Part shown: one piece after another, positions 7,827 to 14,677 of the stretch
Layout: every line of letters begins with the position of its first letter
Position numbering within the stretch: position 1 is the stretch's first letter
From: a virus
Taxonomy: Duplodnaviria; Heunggongvirae; Uroviricota; Caudoviricetes
Reading direction: 5' to 3' (one strand)
DNA length: 20,380 bases
IMG/VR virus record: IMGVR_UViG_3300020577_013140
Coordinates: 1 to 20,380 of that record
The notes under the pieces: model-generated
Seen by the model: the letters and a program-made list of their open reading frames with translations, nothing else
What the model was told of the DNA's origin: nothing
The model's database searches: none
Position numbers and translations under genes: made by a program

Positions 7827-7929
7827 CTCCTTCCCGGGTTTTCACCACTACGGGCCCGACCCTCCCCCTCTCCTAGTTAATATATACTACAGCCATGTTC
7901 CCCTACTTCGTACCTGTGCCTGCCTAAGG

Positions 7930-8058
7930 GTGTTCCTTTTACCTTCACTCTCCTCTCCCCTACCCTTTCCCTTACCCTCTTCCAATCATTCAACAGCCAT
8001 ATCCCTTTATGTTTACGTTAGTTAGCCCTTTCCCCTCCTTTCTCCCTCCCTCTCTCAT
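7930..8058. other. Polypyrimidine(+)/polypurine(-) tract with G-quadruplex-type motifs at the strand switch
   Basis: Almost only C/T on the plus strand over long stretches. Minus strand 7977-7957 = GGGTAAGGGAAAGGGTAGGGG; 8050-8026 = GGGAGGGAGAAAGGAGGGGAAAGGG. Confidence 0.7.
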
Positions 8059-8086
8059 TTGACAACCCCCCATCCTGTGATACCTT
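8059..8086 (+). promoter_or_regulatory. sigma70-like promoter for the HUH gene
   Basis: TTGACA (8059-8064), 16 nt, TGaTACCTT; predicted +1 about 8093, in-frame GTG at 8098. Confidence 0.7.
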
Positions 8087-8097
8087 GTCTCACTACT

Positions 8098-10341
8098 GTG
8101 GATCGCTTTAATCGTGACATCGTTGAGATCGCCCTCTCCTTGGAAGAAGGAGAAGTGGTTGATTTACACTCGTTTATGACTCGTGCCTTCCCCCACAGGA
8201 AGGTTTCGGATCGCTACAAGCACGGAAATTATCACACGAATGCCGAGGCTATCGTCCTGAGCTCCTGGTCCAATCGCAAGGCCTACATCATGTGTGGAGC
8301 CCCCGGATACGCTGGCGTGCCCTCCTGCTGCCATCAGACCCTCGTCTGTGAGGCCTGCTGCAAGAAGGCTGCAGCACGCATGTACGTCCGCTACCAACAC
8401 GCCTTTGAACAGGCACAGCACTGGTACTCGATCACCTACTCCTTCAAGACGAATATCTTCCTCGACACTGCCACCAAGGAAGAGTTCCTGAACCGCTACA
8501 AGGTGGCAGACGCGTTTATCCGCTCCCTGCGCTCCGCTGGCCTTATCCATGGGGCTGTCGCCGTACGTGAAATATCCATCAATTCCTTTCAGGGCAAGGC
8601 TGTATTCCCTCACACGCACGTCGTCGTCAACTCTGACCGCTCCGACCTTATCAATGAAGACGGTACCTATCACACCGCCATTGCAGAGGAGGCAGCCCGC
8701 ACAGGCGTCTCCATCAAGGTCACACGCATCACCGATTCCTCTGTATTCCTTACTCAGCTCAAATACCCCCTGAAGCCTATCAACATCAAGTCCCTCTACG
8801 AACAGGAGGCAGTCAACTATGATTACAATGAAATAAACCTGGGCTTGGATACTGTCCTGTGCCGCCTCACCGAATACGGCAAGGGTACCCCACGTATTGT
8901 TTATTATGGCAACATGGATGCTCGCTGCAAGGATTACATGGGAGAGGACATGAACCAGCAGAAGAGGGCAAAGCGCGCCCTGGCTCGGGCACAGGTCGCT
9001 CCTCAACAAACTAAAGAATTGAATTCTGCCTCTGCCCCCACTAAAATGGTCACAGTGCAGCTAGACCCTGCAACTACGACTATTATGCCCTATGCTCCTC
9101 AACCGGTGATGCCTCCCCAGACCCAGGCACCGCAGAAAAAGAAGAACTTCTGGGGGCCTCTCGCTCTCGGTGTGGGTGCCGGCATTGCAGGTCTCGGTGC
9201 ATACGACCAGTTCGCCAATCATGGGCGGGCTACCAGTGCGGTCCTGAATAGCCTCAAGAGATACTTCCCTTCCAGTGCACAATCGAGCGTAATGCCTCCT
9301 CCAGTCGCTCGTAACCCTGTTCCCCTTGGTCCTGCCCGCACCGAGGCCGCTGTCATCGCAGACATGACCGCAGGACGCGTAGGTGGTCACTTTAATGATG
9401 CTGGTCGTAATGCCTTGCCTGATTGGCTGCGTCTGCAACGTGATGTGGCCAAGGACACCACCTTCGCTGGTATTCCGGGACACGCTGTTTCCACTGGTCC
9501 TTCGCCTGTGGCTCGAGTTGCTTCTGACCCTCGCTTACCTCGTATATTTACTTCCCCTGAGGGTCAGGCGGCCTATCGTGCCTTGTCTTCACAGCAACCT
9601 GACACTGGAGCTGCCCTCGGTACGTCTGACCTTTTGTCGAATGTTATTCCCACTGGTGCGGCAGTCGCTGACATCGGCGTATTTGGTGTTAATGCTTCAG
9701 GAGGACTATCCGGGTTGCTGAGCAAGATTCTTCCCAAGGTAGGTATTACTTCTCCCAAGGTGCTTGGTCCGCTGTCTCGTATTTCCTCCTTTGCTTCCCG
9801 GCCTATATTCGGTGGTCCTAGTGCGGCCGGTTCCATTACGCGGGCCACCACGCCTATCCTTGGTGGTGCGATGGGTTATTCCGTTGGCTCCAACCCGCTG
9901 AACGTTGAAGCCTACATGGATGCCTTCAAGGATTTGCCTCCTGAACGTGCTGCCTTGGCTTCTCGTTTATTTGGCACGCTCGGCGGTTCAGCGATCGCCC
10001 GGCGCTCTCCTTTTCTTGGAAGTTCTCTTGTAGCAGGCGCAGCAGGACTCGTAGGGCGTGCTAGCTCGCAGATAGAAGACATGACCGGCTCTGTGGCTGA
10101 GCGTGGGGCCTTTGGTGATGTGCTGAACCGTTTGTATCGAGGTGCTCGTGCTGGTAACCCTGAGTACCGCATTGCGTTGGAAAATGCATTGAAATACGTC
10201 GACAGTAATCCACAGCTCGCCGGAGCCATTGCTGGTAAAGAACAACCCTGGTACCGCTCTTGGCCTGTTACGGAACAGATGGGTGACTCTCCGGCGCTTC
10301 AAAGTTTGATTAACAAATCCAGACAGGCTATCCTTGAGTGA
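8098..10341 (+). CDS. Rolling-circle Rep-type HUH endonuclease fused in frame to a Pro/Gly/Ala-rich probable virion protein
   Basis: Zn-knuckle C(8293)...CCHQTLVCEAC, motif I-like YSITYS (about 8425-8442), HUH PHTHVVV (8608-), motif III KYPLK (Tyr 8764). After about 9050 the sequence is low-complexity, with a hydrophobic GPLALGVGAGIAGLGAYD helix. No stop between the two parts. Confidence 0.75.
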   Translation: MDRFNRDIVEIALSLEEGEVVDLHSFMTRAFPHRKVSDRYKHGNYHTNAEAIVLSSWSNRKAYIMCGAPGYAGVPSCCHQTLVCEACCKKAAARMYVRYQHAFEQAQHWYSITYSFKTNIFLDTATKEEFLNRYKVADAFIRSLRSAGLIHGAVAVREISINSFQGKAVFPHTHVVVNSDRSDLINEDGTYHTAIAEEAARTGVSIKVTRITDSSVFLTQLKYPLKPINIKSLYEQEAVNYDYNEINLGLDTVLCRLTEYGKGTPRIVYYGNMDARCKDYMGEDMNQQKRAKRALARAQVAPQQTKELNSASAPTKMVTVQLDPATTTIMPYAPQPVMPPQTQAPQKKKNFWGPLALGVGAGIAGLGAYDQFANHGRATSAVLNSLKRYFPSSAQSSVMPPPVARNPVPLGPARTEAAVIADMTAGRVGGHFNDAGRNALPDWLRLQRDVAKDTTFAGIPGHAVSTGPSPVARVASDPRLPRIFTSPEGQAAYRALSSQQPDTGAALGTSDLLSNVIPTGAAVADIGVFGVNASGGLSGLLSKILPKVGITSPKVLGPLSRISSFASRPIFGGPSAAGSITRATTPILGGAMGYSVGSNPLNVEAYMDAFKDLPPERAALASRLFGTLGGSAIARRSPFLGSSLVAGAAGLVGRASSQIEDMTGSVAERGAFGDVLNRLYRGARAGNPEYRIALENALKYVDSNPQLAGAIAGKEQPWYRSWPVTEQMGDSPALQSLINKSRQAILE
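9019..9047 (+). promoter_or_regulatory. Internal near-consensus sigma70 promoter inside the HUH fusion ORF
   Basis: TTGAAT (9019-9024), 17 nt, TAAAAT (9042-9047); predicted +1 about 9054, with in-frame GTG 9055 and ATG 9085. Confidence 0.65.
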
Positions 10342-10342
10342 T

Positions 10343-11194
10343 ATGACGACAGATCCGTACACACAATTTAAGCAGGCCTTTCTTGACCAGGCGTTATTGA
10401 AAGGCTACGACGCTGACTTCCTTGAAGGGTTCTTCAAGCGGGCCGAGGACGAATACTCTCAATGGGAGACCTTGGTTGAGTTGACCTACAAGGGCGACAC
10501 TGCTCTTTGCAAGCAGGCCTACGCCGAGTTGGCTGCTTCCTTGGGTACTTATGGAGTAAGCGATAAGATGGCTGAAGCTTCCGGCATGGGGCCTGAGATC
10601 CTTGGGTTGCTCACCCGCCTTGGCGGCAGCACTGCTGGCATGTTTGGTCAATCAGGTGGGGCAGGACTTGGTGGTGCTCTGGTCGGGGGTGGAGGCGGTT
10701 TATTGATCGGGCTCATTCTCTCCCAGATGCTCGGTATCCCTCTTTCCACTGGTATGTTGCTCGGGGCCCTTGGTGGTGCTGGTCTCGGATATGGTGCCGC
10801 AGGTACCCCGGCAGGACAACACTCCATCTTTGGTTCCCCAGATGCTCCGCCGCCGAAGCTACCGAATGCCTCTCAACCTGCACCAGCACCGAATCATTCG
10901 GCTGCCAATGACGTTGCGGCCAATCAGGCGGCTTCAAACCAGGCTGTGGCTGGTGTGTCCCCCAAGCCCCAAGCTCCGTTGCCTGGGCCTGGTGGGCAAC
11001 CCGTCGCTCCTCCTGAGCAAATGGGGCCTCCACCAGCACCAGAAAAACTAGGCCCGCCGCCAGCTCCAACACCTGCTCCTGCTCCGAATGCCGGCGCCCC
11101 TCAGCCGCTCCGACCAGGCACACAATCTCCCGGTATTCCACCAATCGGTGCACCGGCTCTACCCACACCGCCAAAACCACCAGGAGCCAAGTAA
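10343..11194 (+). CDS. Glycine-zipper membrane-type protein with Pro-rich tail; probable virion protein
   Basis: ATG 1 nt after the upstream TGA; GGAGLGGALVGGGGGLLIGLIL..GMLLGALGGAGLGYG; four K-x-A motifs in the N-terminal 80 aa. Confidence 0.8.
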   Translation: MTTDPYTQFKQAFLDQALLKGYDADFLEGFFKRAEDEYSQWETLVELTYKGDTALCKQAYAELAASLGTYGVSDKMAEASGMGPEILGLLTRLGGSTAGMFGQSGGAGLGGALVGGGGGLLIGLILSQMLGIPLSTGMLLGALGGAGLGYGAAGTPAGQHSIFGSPDAPPPKLPNASQPAPAPNHSAANDVAANQAASNQAVAGVSPKPQAPLPGPGGQPVAPPEQMGPPPAPEKLGPPPAPTPAPAPNAGAPQPLRPGTQSPGIPPIGAPALPTPPKPPGAK

Positions 11195-11195
11195 T

Positions 11196-12074
11196 ATGAA
11201 CGATCTTTATATCGAGGAACTCATTGATGGGCTACAGGCCGCGTTATCCAAACGTGGCAACGATCTTTTCAGTAGCTCTCCAAACGGAGCCTCATTATTC
11301 CCTTCCATGACCTCACAGGCAAAGTGGAAATTCGCCAAAGGCGAGAACTTTCTACGATTGCACGACGGGCAGAAGGTCTACGCCTTTAAGCTGCCCACAG
11401 GCCTTTCTCACACTGAGGACTTTGCCGCTCATCGAGAAGCGGACCTGGACCCCAGTGTTTTTGCCGAAGGGGCCACACAGCAAGGACTGGCGCAAGTACA
11501 TCGAGCTGACCCAGGATCCATTTACTTTACCTTGCAGGAAGGACGGGATAACCCAACCTTCACGTTAAAGCACACCGGAGAAAGTAACTGGCGAGGTACT
11601 CCAAAGAAACGCAAGGCGAAGGAACTGGTGGTACCAAACATCGATCATGCTGCCATGGCCGAAGGGATCAAGGCGGCTTTCGACGGGAAGAAAGAACCTG
11701 TTAAAAAGGCTGACTTCGCCCCTTTTAGTTTCGCTGCAGGTCCCGGCGCCCATGCCCTGCAGCGTCTTGCTTTTTCCCCGGGCGAGTTAGTGCATCGACT
11801 AGGTGATGGTGGAAAAAACAATTTCCTTGGTGCCCTCGGTGCCGCCGGACTTGGTGCCGGCGCTGGTGCGGCTTACCATCTTGGAAAGCGTACCTTGTAC
11901 AACACAGAGGACGAGAACCAAATGGAAGATGAACAAGGGAGCAAACCACTACTGAGGCGCATGCTGACTCCTGCGCTTGCCGCTGGTGTAATCGGCGGAG
12001 CACAATCCTCGTTGTTTGACAACCAGTACAACTTGCTCGAGAGCGGAGCAGGGATGGGCACGAAAGTATTTTAA
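11196..12074 (+). CDS. Glycine-zipper protein; probable virion protein
   Basis: ATG 1 nt after TAA; ELIDGLQAALSKRG leader; FLGALGAAGLGAGAGAAYHLGKR and ALAAGVIGGA segments. Confidence 0.8.
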   Translation: MNDLYIEELIDGLQAALSKRGNDLFSSSPNGASLFPSMTSQAKWKFAKGENFLRLHDGQKVYAFKLPTGLSHTEDFAAHREADLDPSVFAEGATQQGLAQVHRADPGSIYFTLQEGRDNPTFTLKHTGESNWRGTPKKRKAKELVVPNIDHAAMAEGIKAAFDGKKEPVKKADFAPFSFAAGPGAHALQRLAFSPGELVHRLGDGGKNNFLGALGAAGLGAGAGAAYHLGKRTLYNTEDENQMEDEQGSKPLLRRMLTPALAAGVIGGAQSSLFDNQYNLLESGAGMGTKVF

Positions 12075-12457
12075 TGAGTACGACAATCCTCAGCAAATTG
12101 CGCTCATTGCGTGTCGGACGCCCTCAACAACCTGCTGAGGCGCCACCAGTGCCGTCCTTTGATGGCCCTGCCCTGCGTAGTGCGATCAACCGCGATAGTA
12201 GTCTCTCAAAGGCCGAGCAGTCTGAGTTACATGGCTGGCTGGATAATCCAGAGACAATCAAGGGGTTGCAAAGCGGGGGCATCGGTGCAGCTCTGAGCTA
12301 TATGGTCGCCAAGTTCCTCAAACTCAAGCCACAAACCCAACTTTTGTTATCGATTGCGGGCTTCGGAATTGGTAAGATCATCTACGACTACAAGACCAAC
12401 CCAAAGAAGTTTAGCTCCTATAACGAGCAGTTACGAATGTATGAAATCCACAACTGA
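12074..12457 (+). CDS. Small protein with two hydrophobic Gly-containing helices
   Basis: TAATG overlap; GGIGAALSYMVAKF and LLLSIAGFGIGKIIYDYK. Confidence 0.8.
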   Translation: MSTTILSKLRSLRVGRPQQPAEAPPVPSFDGPALRSAINRDSSLSKAEQSELHGWLDNPETIKGLQSGGIGAALSYMVAKFLKLKPQTQLLLSIAGFGIGKIIYDYKTNPKKFSSYNEQLRMYEIHN

Positions 12458-12836
12458 TTTGTTGCCGGCGGAAGCACTGGCCTCTCATCTCAAGTGCGCC
12501 CTGGCGCTAAACCTCGGCAAGGCCGGGCACAGCCTGTATGAGCTGGAAGAGGCGTTGGCCGCCAAAGACACTGAAAAGACCGCCAAGCTGCTGAAGGCTG
12601 CAGGCGACTCTCCGCTCTCGTCGTTGAAATCCCTGTTTGACGTAGCCAGCGGAGGGCTGATGATCGGCGCAGGCACCGCGGCAGCTGCTGGCGGCGTCGG
12701 TGCTGCCGGCCTCTACGGGGCTTACAAGGGGCTACAGGACTCTAAGAAAAGAATCGATGACGCAAACGCCGTTCGTCAACGTATGGATATTGCGCGTCGA
12801 GAGCTCGAAACAGAGCTGGCCGGGCACGCACGCTAA
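12441..12836 (+). CDS. Gly/Ala-zipper protein with C-terminal coiled coil
   Basis: Likely start ATG 12441; EKTAKLLKAAG, GLMIGAGTAAAAGGVGAAGLYGAYKG, then a heptad-like tail. Confidence 0.8.
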   Translation: MKSTTDLLPAEALASHLKCALALNLGKAGHSLYELEEALAAKDTEKTAKLLKAAGDSPLSSLKSLFDVASGGLMIGAGTAAAAGGVGAAGLYGAYKGLQDSKKRIDDANAVRQRMDIARRELETELAGHAR

Positions 12837-12841
12837 GAATT

Positions 12842-13186
12842 ATGAATCGCGAGGCATTTAGCGATCTTTCTGACTTGTCATCCAGGGACGTTCCACCGGA
12901 GCGTGATTTGGAGGCCGAGCTGTTTAATAGACGGTCCATCAAGGACATGGTCACCAACATGGAAAAAGAGTTGGGGCTGTCTCCTGGGAAAAAGGCAAAG
13001 GAAGTAAGACGCCACGTCGACATCCTTGCTCCCGGGCGAGAAGAGGACGGGCAAAAGCTTTCTCGTATCTTGAATGACGACAAGACGTACCGGATTATCA
13101 TGTGGAAAGACACCTGGACTGTACACGGTGACTTCCGCGTGTTTCTAATTTATGAAGAGTTTGTCGACGACAAAAAGGCAAAGTAA
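12842..13186 (+). CDS. Hypothetical protein (114 aa)
   Basis: Tightly spaced in the operon; charged, with a beta-rich C-terminus (YRIIMWKDTWTVHGDFRVFLIYEE). Confidence 0.8.
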   Translation: MNREAFSDLSDLSSRDVPPERDLEAELFNRRSIKDMVTNMEKELGLSPGKKAKEVRRHVDILAPGREEDGQKLSRILNDDKTYRIIMWKDTWTVHGDFRVFLIYEEFVDDKKAK

Positions 13187-14040
13187 TGAACACCAAACAA
13201 TCTAACTGGGCCGGCACTCTAGGTGCTTCGGCCGCCGTCGGCAGCGGAACCTTTGCCCTCGGCGCACTCATCCAAGAAGTCATGCGTCAGCGCGATGCTA
13301 ACGCCCAACGCAACCGGCAGCAACTGCCAGACAACGCTCTGGTAATTGACCTGCCGCGTAGAGCGGAGAAGAAAGCAGCCGACTTGTCTGCTCCTTTCCT
13401 CAAACAGGCAGACGGGATGCTCTCAACCGCCTTGGCACTGCTAGCTGGTGCGCCTGCCGGGTACCTCGGCACAAAGGCACTTTACGACGGAGTCAAAAAG
13501 AAGCAAACGGACCGCGAAATCGGTGACGCTAACTTGAAGTACATGCAGACGCTGCAAGCACTTCAACAAAAGACCGCCGCGCTTTCTTTGCCGTACGTTG
13601 AACAGTTTTGCAAGGCTGCGGCTGAGAACCTGGTCAAGGACGCCGGACTGGAAAAGGTATTGCCGTGGCTGGCTACGCAAGGAGCAAAAATCCCAGGTGC
13701 TGCGCGTACCGGTCAATGGGTGACCAGCCATGCTCCACAACTAAAGCGATCACTGCCTGCCCTCGCCGGCGGAACCGCTGCTGGTGTTGCCGCCGACGAC
13801 TTTGGTGCGTTCGACTGGCTTAAAAGCAACCCAGCCACCCCAGGACCTGGAACTTTTGGTGCGATTAAAGATGGCGCAAAAGACGCGTGGCTCACGATGG
13901 CTGTCCTTTCCGCCTTAGGTGGAGCTGGTGCCATGGTGCATGCCAACAACAAGAAGACCAACCGGGAAAACTCTGGCCCTCCTTCTGCTGTCGCGTTGAA
14001 CTACGAGGATATTCCTCCTGCCGCTGCGTTGCAGCACTAA
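13186..14040 (+). CDS. Multi-Gly/Ala-zipper protein; probable virion protein
   Basis: TAATG overlap; four hydrophobic Gly/Ala segments separated by K-x-A motifs (KKAA, KQAD, KTAA, KAAA, KDAG). Confidence 0.8.
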   Translation: MNTKQSNWAGTLGASAAVGSGTFALGALIQEVMRQRDANAQRNRQQLPDNALVIDLPRRAEKKAADLSAPFLKQADGMLSTALALLAGAPAGYLGTKALYDGVKKKQTDREIGDANLKYMQTLQALQQKTAALSLPYVEQFCKAAAENLVKDAGLEKVLPWLATQGAKIPGAARTGQWVTSHAPQLKRSLPALAGGTAAGVAADDFGAFDWLKSNPATPGPGTFGAIKDGAKDAWLTMAVLSALGGAGAMVHANNKKTNRENSGPPSAVALNYEDIPPAAALQH

Positions 14041-14044
14041 CTGT

Positions 14045-14677
14045 ATGGATCGTGACGCCTTTTACGCAGGTTACGCCGAGGCCCTTTCAAAGAATGCAGG
14101 CATGGTTAATTGGGCTCGGGAAACGTTTGGTCAACCGCTGGTCCAGGGACACATTGATGGTCACTACAGCGGGCTTGGCCGATACAATACCTCGACAGGC
14201 GGCGTTGATCCACATACTCGCAACGCCCTTCAAATGGTGATGGGTAATACCCCTGAGCCTGTGGGTGTAACCGGACACTCCTCCATTCCGTACATGGATA
14301 GCATGCGTAAAGCCATGTACCAGTTTGGCTCCAGCCGCTTTGGGAAAATGCTGGGTGACCGCATAGTTCCTCCGAGTACCGTCAACAACCGGCTTACCTC
14401 TGCGACTGGTGGGGTATTCTCAGCAGGCAATGACGGAGTACAGGTCGACCGATCTAAAATTCCTGGAGCGTTGTTTAACAAAGTCAAGGATTGGGCGAGC
14501 TCACATGGCAACTTGCTAAAAGGCCTAGGCTTCGGAGCTGCGGCTCTTGGGCTTGGCGCCATGGCTTTCAACGGGCGTCAAAGCAACCAGAGACAGGTCG
14601 CTGCACCAGCCGGGCAACAAGCGGCACCGTTCAACGGGCGCGAAGGAAATACCTTTACCAAATACCAGGAAGTCTAG
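14045..14677 (+). CDS. Gly-rich protein with AFYAGYAEALSKNAG leader and C-terminal hydrophobic helix
   Basis: MDRDAFYAGYAEALSKNAG...LLKGLGFGAAALGLGAMAFNGR. Confidence 0.8.
   Translation: MDRDAFYAGYAEALSKNAGMVNWARETFGQPLVQGHIDGHYSGLGRYNTSTGGVDPHTRNALQMVMGNTPEPVGVTGHSSIPYMDSMRKAMYQFGSSRFGKMLGDRIVPPSTVNNRLTSATGGVFSAGNDGVQVDRSKIPGALFNKVKDWASSHGNLLKGLGFGAAALGLGAMAFNGRQSNQRQVAAPAGQQAAPFNGREGNTFTKYQEV

Follow-up and report, generated by a model that had tools for sequence, protein, structure and literature searches.

A Rep_1-like HUH domain constantly fused to a putative membrane anchor in a clade of large uncultivated phages, with a conserved promoter-like element in the linker

The first 20,380 bases of a 182,660-base IMG/VR virus record (IMGVR_UViG_3300020577_013140; CheckV completeness of 83%), referred to here as the window, contain a gene in which an HUH-type replication initiator (Rep) domain is continuous with a Gly/Ala-rich protein bearing a putative membrane anchor. 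We find that this gene is one ancient, conserved fusion of an uncultivated phage clade with genomes of ~180 to 226 kb and that its N-terminal domain belongs to the HUH superfamily, of the Rep_1 (pC194/pUB110)/IS91 structural kind. The linker between the two parts carries a promoter-like element, P2, which is conserved at the DNA level across the clade. Our overall reading, to which we give an even chance, is that the gene encodes a nickase anchored in the membrane, with the gene's own promoter, P1, serving a long form and P2 serving a short form.

The gene is delimited as follows.

8098 to 10341, plus strand: single coding sequence of 747 amino acids (80.3 kDa) comprising the Rep domain, a linker, a hydrophobic helix, and a Gly/Ala-rich C-terminal part; it starts with GTG, ends with TGA, and is matched by 14 close homologues over its full length

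An open reading frame listing gives a 760-amino-acid frame from 8059 to 10341. We set the gene start at the GTG at 8098 because the TTG at 8059 belongs to the -35 hexamer of P1 and because protein conservation in all homologues begins at 8098, with the residues V/M-DRFN. A word-indexed search returned 14 homologues with 38 to 99% identity (53 to 99% in the N-terminal domain), all 699 to 795 amino acids long and aligned end to end. An exhaustive profile search with the N-terminal domain yielded 221 proteins or clusters at E ≤ 0.001, the 12 best of which are all 662 to 802 amino acids long. The domain order is kept in the far relatives P0016 to P0023, P0103, P0131, P0145, and P0146; the last four, at ~23% identity in the N-terminal domain, run from a Rep-like domain through a basic linker, a Lys cluster, and a Gly-rich hydrophobic helix to a long tail. 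Synteny is likewise maintained, as in the 10 loci with gene calls the gene heads a tightly packed plus-strand block after a divergent intergenic region of ~300 nt. The gene is single-copy in the genome, and scans of IMG/VR, JGI metagenomes, and GTDB genomes for more loci added nothing useful.

These homologues bear directly on whether the fusion arose artificially or only recently, with an assembly error or a lately lost stop codon joining two genes; loss of the Rep stop codon had been raised as an alternative in an initial annotation of the window. The sole hint in this direction is the differing codon usage of the two gene halves. Independent samples supply 14 close and at least 10 far homologues that carry the fusion, none of the homologues is interrupted by a stop codon near the joint, and a search for a stand-alone gene for the C-terminal part found none. 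An independent DNA assembly from another study (run X1) covers 8068 to 12500 without a single difference and so includes the interval from 8950 to 9090 that had been singled out for checking. A contig from an RNA library also bridges the joint, from 8739 to 9363. Because the close homologues and the far relatives all keep the fusion, we exclude a recent stop codon loss and regard the chance of an artefact or accident as negligible. The earlier proposal that a Rep is read through into a hydrophobic protein rich in Gly, Ala, and Pro is borne out.

The N-terminal part of the protein contains a complete set of HUH/Tyr endonuclease motifs.

8098 to 8967, plus strand: N-terminal zinc ribbon and HUH/Tyr endonuclease domain (residues 1 to 290), from the AlphaFold model and structural matches
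8293 to 8358, plus strand: four-Cys cluster (C66, C78, C84, and C87), a putative zinc ribbon, from conservation and from structural neighbours that carry Zn_Tnp_IS91
8422 to 8445, plus strand: HUH motif I, WYSITYSF (residues 109 to 116), with T113, on strand beta-1; T113 is found in 127 of 137 remote relatives, and the modelled strand spans 108 to 116
8599 to 8625, plus strand: HUH motif II, AVFPHTHVV (residues 168 to 176), with H172-T-H174, from conservation; the modelled strand spans 168 to 179
8761 to 8799, plus strand: HUH motif III, KYPLKP (residues 222 to 227), with Y223-x-x-K226, and the invariant Y234, from conservation

Across 115 diverse sequences, C66, C78, C84, Y223, and Y234 are invariant, and C87 and K226 are each kept in at least 90%. 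The paired histidines are nearly as constant among the 137 remote relatives (H172 in 137 and H174 in 136), where the residue between them is V, A, I, L, or S in place of the Thr of the window protein. T113, G152, E158, and P171 are also kept across relatives, and Y223 lies at the end of a modelled helix (214 to 222). The initial annotation had read the Cys cluster, SITYS, PHTHV, and YPLK as a Rep set; all of these motifs are where it placed them, and their key residues are conserved across 115 to 137 relatives. Because all catalytic residues (H172, H174, E158, and Y223-x-x-K226) are retained, we expect the domain to be a working nicking-joining enzyme.

Structural comparisons identify the kind of HUH protein to which the domain belongs. 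An AlphaFold model from the deep 115-sequence alignment reached a predicted local distance difference test (pLDDT) score of 97.3 and a predicted template modeling (pTM) score of 0.92, superseding a first model from 13 sequences (pLDDT of 60.6). Its core is ordered as beta (108 to 116), alpha, beta (152 to 163), beta (168 to 179), alpha, beta (204 to 211), and alpha. In the ESM Atlas, it matches clusters in which 97 to 100% of the members carry Rep_1 (PF01446), with a template modeling (TM) score of 0.64 and a root mean square deviation (rmsd) of 4.0 over 242 residues; clusters of PF01446 Rep_1, PF14319 Zn_Tnp_IS91, PF23343 REP_ORF2-G2P, and IS91 Y2 transposase score 0.59 to 0.64 over ~240 residues. 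The top eight matches among Swiss-Prot models are rolling-circle plasmid Rep proteins (E of 1e-7 to 7e-6), including P03862 (Protein rep, S. aureus), which we take to be the pC194 Rep; the next are the IS801 transposase (E of 7e-5), pIJ101 Rep, P2-type replication endonucleases, and pGT5 Rep. AFDB clusters named "Replication protein" match at an E of 5e-10, and the BFVD matches are microvirus replication initiators. Among solved structures, the SIRV1 ORF119 Rep (Z of 8.5) and the Helitron HUH domain (Z of 7.8) are followed by vientovirus, RepB, nanovirus, and geminivirus Rep proteins (Z of 6 to 7). The PDB rows alone are indecisive because Rep matches are mixed with generic ferredoxin-like folds, and Foldseek searches of the PDB with both models were uninformative, returning amidohydrolase and ribosomal S6-like ferredoxin folds. 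These matches, together with the 221 relatives and the kept residues, confirm the earlier assignment of the N-terminal part to HUH Rep-type proteins.

Sequence searches of Pfam, PHROGs, NCBIfam, and the PDB with the single sequence and with profiles, and tblastn against phage records, returned nothing for this protein. The PF01446 hidden Markov model does not match the window protein at E ≤ 0.1, and two of the 115 relatives reach an E of 0.014; we therefore describe the domain as Rep_1-like by fold and not as a Pfam member. One stand-alone relative sits in an integrated element, where it follows an integrase, HTH_17, and DUF3987 in that order, and other relatives are found on contigs of up to 298 kb.

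The linker that joins the Rep domain to the C-terminal part contains the promoter-like element and, shortly after it, a candidate start codon.

8968 to 9147, plus strand: linker rich in Pro, Gln, and Thr (residues 291 to 350), variable in length and sequence outside the DNA-level blocks of the alignment
9009 to 9047, plus strand: P2, consisting of AACTAAAGAA, TTGAAT (-35, 9019 to 9024), a 17-nt spacer, and TAAAAT (-10, 9042 to 9047), from DNA-level conservation
9085 to 9087, plus strand: in-frame ATG (Met330-Pro), candidate start of a 418-amino-acid, 43.2-kDa isoform, from conservation

The 11 loci compared are saturated at four-fold degenerate sites, where pairwise identity is 0.28 to 0.47. 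Within the 2.2-kb codon alignment, the 15-mer AACTAAAGAATTGAA (9009 to 9023) is the only invariant run of at least 8 nt. A single codon is used in all 9 loci at 12 of 134 invariant degenerate residue columns, and four of these 12 are the consecutive residues T305-K-E-L308. The 6-codon window at residue 304 tops all 643 windows in third-position conservation (0.94 versus a mean of 0.58 and a standard deviation of 0.10). In the most distant locus, L013, the peptide becomes TKSLKS while ACTAAA and TTGAA stay. The -10 block occurs as TAAAAT, TACAAT, TACACT, or CATAAT, and its T, A, A, and T are held while the encoded residues change among PTM, TKM, ATL, STI, PIM, and NTM. The spacer is 17 nt in every locus, and its sequence and encoded amino acids vary freely. 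The pattern TTGAAn-N17-TAnAAT sits at the same alignment column in 11/11 loci, scoring 8 to 10 of 12, and when promoter-like pairs were mapped across all 11 genes, P2 was the only site common to all of them. This conservation argues that P2 is under selection at the DNA level beyond the needs of the protein. The 15-mer and the extended P2 motif are unique in the 182-kb genome, which sets P2 outside any repeated phage promoter class.

Two other explanations of individual features in the linker were considered and rejected. The invariant peptide TKELNS might have been a protease site; L013 alters the peptide and keeps the DNA blocks, so the peptide is better seen as a by-product of the DNA constraint. 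A hairpin, AGAAT-TGA-ATTCT, is lost in L004, L012, and L013 and is not a conserved feature.

Conservation around the internal ATG is consistent with its use as a start codon. A Met followed by Pro or Ser lies 19 to 37 nt past the -10 block in 11/11 loci, the interval being free in length, and protein conservation resumes exactly at Met330, with MPxxPQPVxPPQ..KKK..W..G. None of the start codons inspected (10343, 12074, 13186, 14045, 14690, and others) is preceded by a Shine-Dalgarno-like sequence, which suggests a host or an initiation mode without need for one; since the phage genes generally lack this sequence, its absence before the ATG at 9085 is no objection. An internal promoter that would yield a 43-kDa membrane isoform is the best reading of these features, and we place it slightly above even odds. 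The nested products proposed in the initial annotation therefore survive in part. The ATG at 9085 is conserved and makes a long and a short form plausible, and the alternative start at the predicted +1, a GTG at 9055, is present in only 2 of the 11 loci and lacks support.

Two further elements precede the gene.

8059 to 8086, plus strand: P1, the gene's own promoter, with TTGACA, a 16-nt spacer ending in TGA, and TACCTT (extended -10), kept across loci
7880 to 8058, plus strand: polypyrimidine tract of ~180 to 200 nt with 70 to 90% C/T on this strand, from composition, in the divergent intergenic region directly 5' of the gene

TTGACA and TGnTAnnnT recur in each of the 10 loci compared, 10 to 11 nt before the start codon and with a variable spacer sequence; the start codon is ATG in 2 of the 10 and GTG in the window gene. 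Sites of the P1 class number three in the genome versus 0.2 expected, the other two being at genome positions 28594 and 33028. Because P1 ends 11 nt before the GTG at 8098, its mRNA would be nearly leaderless, and its two conserved blocks with a free spacer, a pattern that it shares with P2, indicate that the clade uses sigma-70-type promoters. A conserved promoter of this type hints at transcription by the host RNA polymerase, and an intracellular rather than a structural role would fit such transcription. The composition of the polypyrimidine tract is kept in 12/12 related loci, and nowhere else in the 182-kb genome does a 150-nt window reach 78% pyrimidine or purine; DNA contigs of run X1 break within the tract. 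It might be an unwinding or origin-like element beside the Rep gene and is a second candidate Rep target besides the 15-mer at 9009 to 9023.

The part of the protein that follows the linker has two segments.

9133 to 9204, plus strand: Lys cluster and Gly-zipper hydrophobic helix, QKKKNFWGPLALGVGAGIAGLGAY, a putative membrane anchor with its N terminus inside the cell, from hydropathy; kept in close and far fusions
9205 to 10338, plus strand: C-terminal part rich in Gly, Ala, Ser, and Pro, with weakly hydrophobic segments at residues 513 to 531 and 639 to 657 and a conserved end block closing in SPALQSLINKSRQAILE

The Lys cluster and the helix predict a protein that is probably held in the membrane with its Rep domain facing the cytoplasm. 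The C-terminal ~380 amino acids match no known family, and ESM Atlas feature matches reach only 0.78, below a useful level.

The mechanism that we infer from these features involves promoter activity, a short isoform, membrane insertion, and nicking activity with a target in the phage DNA. P1 would give the nearly leaderless mRNA for the full 80-kDa protein. P2 would start a second transcript near 9054, from which Met330 (ATG at 9085) would begin a 43-kDa membrane protein without the Rep domain, and this transcript would also raise expression of the downstream operon. The long form would nick a specific site in the phage DNA and stay on the 5' end through Tyr223. Anchored in the membrane, it could hold the nicked or replicating genome there, for example in starting rolling-circle (concatemer-forming) replication, and the short form would provide a surplus of the membrane part. 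The proposed enzymatic role, in which the Rep cuts phage DNA at a specific site and becomes covalently attached to it at the membrane, perhaps as the first step of rolling-circle replication, is the more tentative part of this mechanism, and we consider it possible but on the unlikely side.

Several observations weigh against this reading. Taken as a single sequence, P2 matches 9 of 12 positions, and an 8.5-kb region holds 4 such sites versus 4.4 by chance; judged from one sequence alone, it is no better than chance. The position of TTGAAT-17-TAAAAT at 9019 to 9047 given in the initial annotation holds, and the site is conserved in 11/11 loci, whereas the description "near-consensus" is overstated. 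P2 also lacks the TGn extension present in P1 and the two other strong sites, the block AACTAAAGAA 5' of its -35 exceeds what a plain sigma-70 promoter needs, and its uniqueness would suit a Rep recognition site as well. The RNA evidence consists of low-depth contigs, possibly of DNA, from which no transcript 5' end is readable. Three wastewater metatranscriptome runs hold the region, and we counted them neither for nor against a transcription start: contigs of one run end at 9042 and start at 9057, others bridge the joint (8739 to 9363 and 8950 to 9116), and all three runs are without cover at 8510 to 8710. As no stand-alone gene for it was found, there is no independent sign that the C-terminal half works alone. 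The helix has only moderate hydropathy, with a Kyte-Doolittle 19-residue mean of 1.26, so the "membrane helix" of the initial annotation stands as a Lys-flanked Gly-zipper segment and less firmly as a transmembrane one.

Codon usage adds a further difficulty for the reading in which P2 is a promoter. The third positions of the N-terminal half are rich in C (0.46, with T at 0.21), and those of the C-terminal half are rich in T (0.39, with C at 0.26). The shift persists within four-fold codon families (C of 0.52 and T of 0.21 in the N-terminal half, C of 0.26 and T of 0.44 in the C-terminal half), which rules out an effect of amino acid composition, and is seen in all 11 loci. The change from C-rich to T-rich third positions that had been noticed by eye is therefore real, but it does not fall at the junction: it begins at ~8750 to 8900, 5' of the joint. 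Because this is 150 to 250 nt 5' of P2, transcription from P2 is no simple explanation. Both halves are poor in A-ending codons compared with the neighbouring genes. Apart from the linker, the next-highest third-position conservation (0.85 to 0.89) is found at 8338 to 8361 and 8419 to 8424 (residues 81 to 88 and 108 to 109), over TLVCEACC and the WY of motif I; codon bias or some further constraint on the DNA or RNA may be the cause.

The conserved block in the linker could instead be the target of the protein that it helps to encode. AACTAAAGAATTGAA, possibly with the TAcAAT block, would then be the recognition or nick site of the Rep, placing an origin inside the rep gene, and its likeness to a promoter would be secondary, or it would serve as both. 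The structural neighbours of the domain (Rep_1, phiX/microvirus, P2 gpA, and the IS91 group) agree with this idea, as does the precedent of phiX174 gene A and phage P2 gene A, which carry the origin inside the Rep gene and encode Reps that act in cis. The 15-mer is not only unique but AT-rich in a genome of ~54% GC and longer than a -35 hexamer needs. Rep_1 proteins nick at CTTGATA (PMC10378824), with which the TTGAA in the conserved block may be compared; CTTGATA itself is conserved nowhere near the gene and occurs in the genome at a chance count, which leaves room for another target. A nick site would not, however, lead one to expect T-A-n-A-n-T exactly 17 nt to its 3' side in 11/11 loci with a free spacer. 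The three bases beside TTGAA differ in L013 (GAA to TCG), which is unexpected next to a nick, the hairpin is missing from the three loci named above, and the cumulative GC skew of the window shows no turn at 9 kb. We favor the promoter over the origin because of the -10-like block at fixed spacing and the L013 changes beside TTGAA, and we regard the origin as unlikely, though a serious contender. A combination, in which a membrane-anchored Rep nicks the invariant 15-mer in its own gene (promoter and origin at once) and stays covalently joined to the 5' end, so that the replicating or even the packaged 200-kb genome is tethered to the membrane, seems improbable to us. If true, a dual promoter/origin with a protein-linked genome would be an initiation and anchoring mode undescribed for large tailed phages.

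Two other readings depart from our proposal in what the fusion does. The HUH domain may no longer cut and may act as a membrane-tethered, sequence-specific DNA binder, for example in positioning or segregating phage DNA, with the linker block as its regulator or operator site. Inactivated Rep derivatives are described in other virus groups (PMC13595969); the HUH motif, E158, and Y223-x-x-K226 are kept in the phage proteins and in 115 diverse relatives, which argues for retained chemistry and leaves this reading with a slim chance. The model offered in the initial annotation, in which the long form is a virion component attached covalently to a genome end as a pilot or tether in packaging or ejection, and the short form is a structural or ejection protein, we consider slimmer still. 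HUH enzymes do form covalent 5' phosphotyrosine links (PMC5714925), and the gene heads a block whose proteins each have a Gly/Ala-rich hydrophobic segment. Against this, searches with the protein and with three other plus-strand genes found nothing similar among 50,697 phage records, no PHROG structural family was matched, and a conserved sigma-70-type promoter with a perfect TTGACA fits an intracellular function better than a late structural set. The labels "virion-type," "ejection," and "covalent pilot" are accordingly unsupported.

Comparison with known systems shows which parts of the fusion are familiar. The Rep_1 initiators (pC194 and pUB110; PF01446) share the fold over ~240 residues (TM of 0.61 to 0.64; Swiss-Prot E of 1e-7 to 7e-6) and the motif order of a Thr strand, P-H-u-H, and K-Y-x-x-K; KYPLKP in motif III may also resemble the family version of this motif. 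They differ in that the window protein bears a putative zinc ribbon of four Cys residues at its N terminus, continues into a predicted membrane anchor and a 380-amino-acid tail, resides in a phage of ~200 kb rather than a small plasmid, and lacks a conserved CTTGATA nearby. The IS91/IS801 HUH transposases likewise have a zinc-binding N terminus followed by an HUH domain (TM of 0.59 for the IS91 cluster; E of 7e-5 for IS801). The tyrosines of IS91 TnpA are Y249 and Y253 (PMC5714925), whereas the window protein is without a YxxxY pair, its Y223 and Y234 being 11 residues apart. The gene is single-copy, syntenic in related phages, and continuous with a putative membrane-protein part, and so does not qualify as a mobile insertion sequence.

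Among phages, Rep proteins in dsDNA phages have a precedent in P2 gpA, and nested Rep isoforms have long been recognized, with phiX174 gene A/A* and Ff gene II/X each giving two in-frame products from one Rep reading frame through an internal translation start. The window gene resembles phiX174 A/A*, Ff II/X, and P2 gpA in being a phage HUH Rep, with predicted nested products and, as in phiX174 and P2, a conserved site within the gene that may act in cis. The short product of phiX174 and Ff is a piece of the Rep, whereas the one predicted here is a Rep-less membrane protein from an internal promoter, and the genomes of P2, the Ff phages, and phiX174 are smaller than that of the phage described here by a factor of ~6 to 40. 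The SIRV1 ORF119 Rep (PDB 2X3G) is the best solved match (Z of 8.5 and rmsd of 4.5 over 114 residues, although general ferredoxin-like folds score similarly) and shows that an archaeal virus with a large linear dsDNA genome and its own replication strategy can carry an HUH Rep. It is a 119-residue minimal domain with 15% identity and without a zinc ribbon or membrane part. Nested Rep isoforms have also been described for plasmid pIGRK (PMC6854812).

A further promoter-like site and the neighbouring genes complete the setting.

10306 to 10334, plus strand: second promoter-like site, TTGATT-17-TATCCT, inside the final 12 codons and ending 8 nt short of the ATG at 10343 that starts the next gene; in the same column in 7/11 loci

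Because this site sits in a strongly conserved peptide, LINKSRQAI, constraint at the DNA and protein levels is inseparable there. In the downstream operon (10343 to 14677), a single Gly/Ala-rich hydrophobic segment is found in each of six of the seven proteins (Kyte-Doolittle 19-residue mean of 0.96 to 1.80; G+A of ≤31%). The two of these that were tested (10343 to 11194 and 13186 to 14040) match no phage record, and none of four scanned matches Pfam. Elsewhere in the window, positions 444 to 2630 encode a 728-amino-acid protein with a HAD/PNKP-type phosphatase-like N terminus (residues 149 to 245) and a SNF2/DEAD-type helicase (phrog_62; E of 5e-39).

What is new here is a Rep_1-like family that current profile libraries miss, constantly fused to a putative membrane anchor and conserved in a clade of ~200-kb phages found in rivers, freshwater, wastewater, and activated sludge. 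HUH enzymes and rolling-circle initiation go unmentioned in two general overviews of jumbo phages (PMC7824862 and PMC13282480). Annotation would gain from a new profile, since Pfam, PHROGs, and NCBIfam fail to detect this family of 221 clusters. A short product without the Rep domain, expressed from a promoter embedded in coding sequence, would also be new. The linker illustrates a regulatory DNA signal within coding sequence that is hidden in a single sequence and unmistakable by synonymous-site conservation; read as a promoter, P2 predicts a transcription start near 9054 and a 43-kDa product beginning MPYAPQ. If active, the nickase would suggest that the life cycle of a large tailed phage includes a cut at a specific DNA site and a protein-DNA link formed at the membrane.

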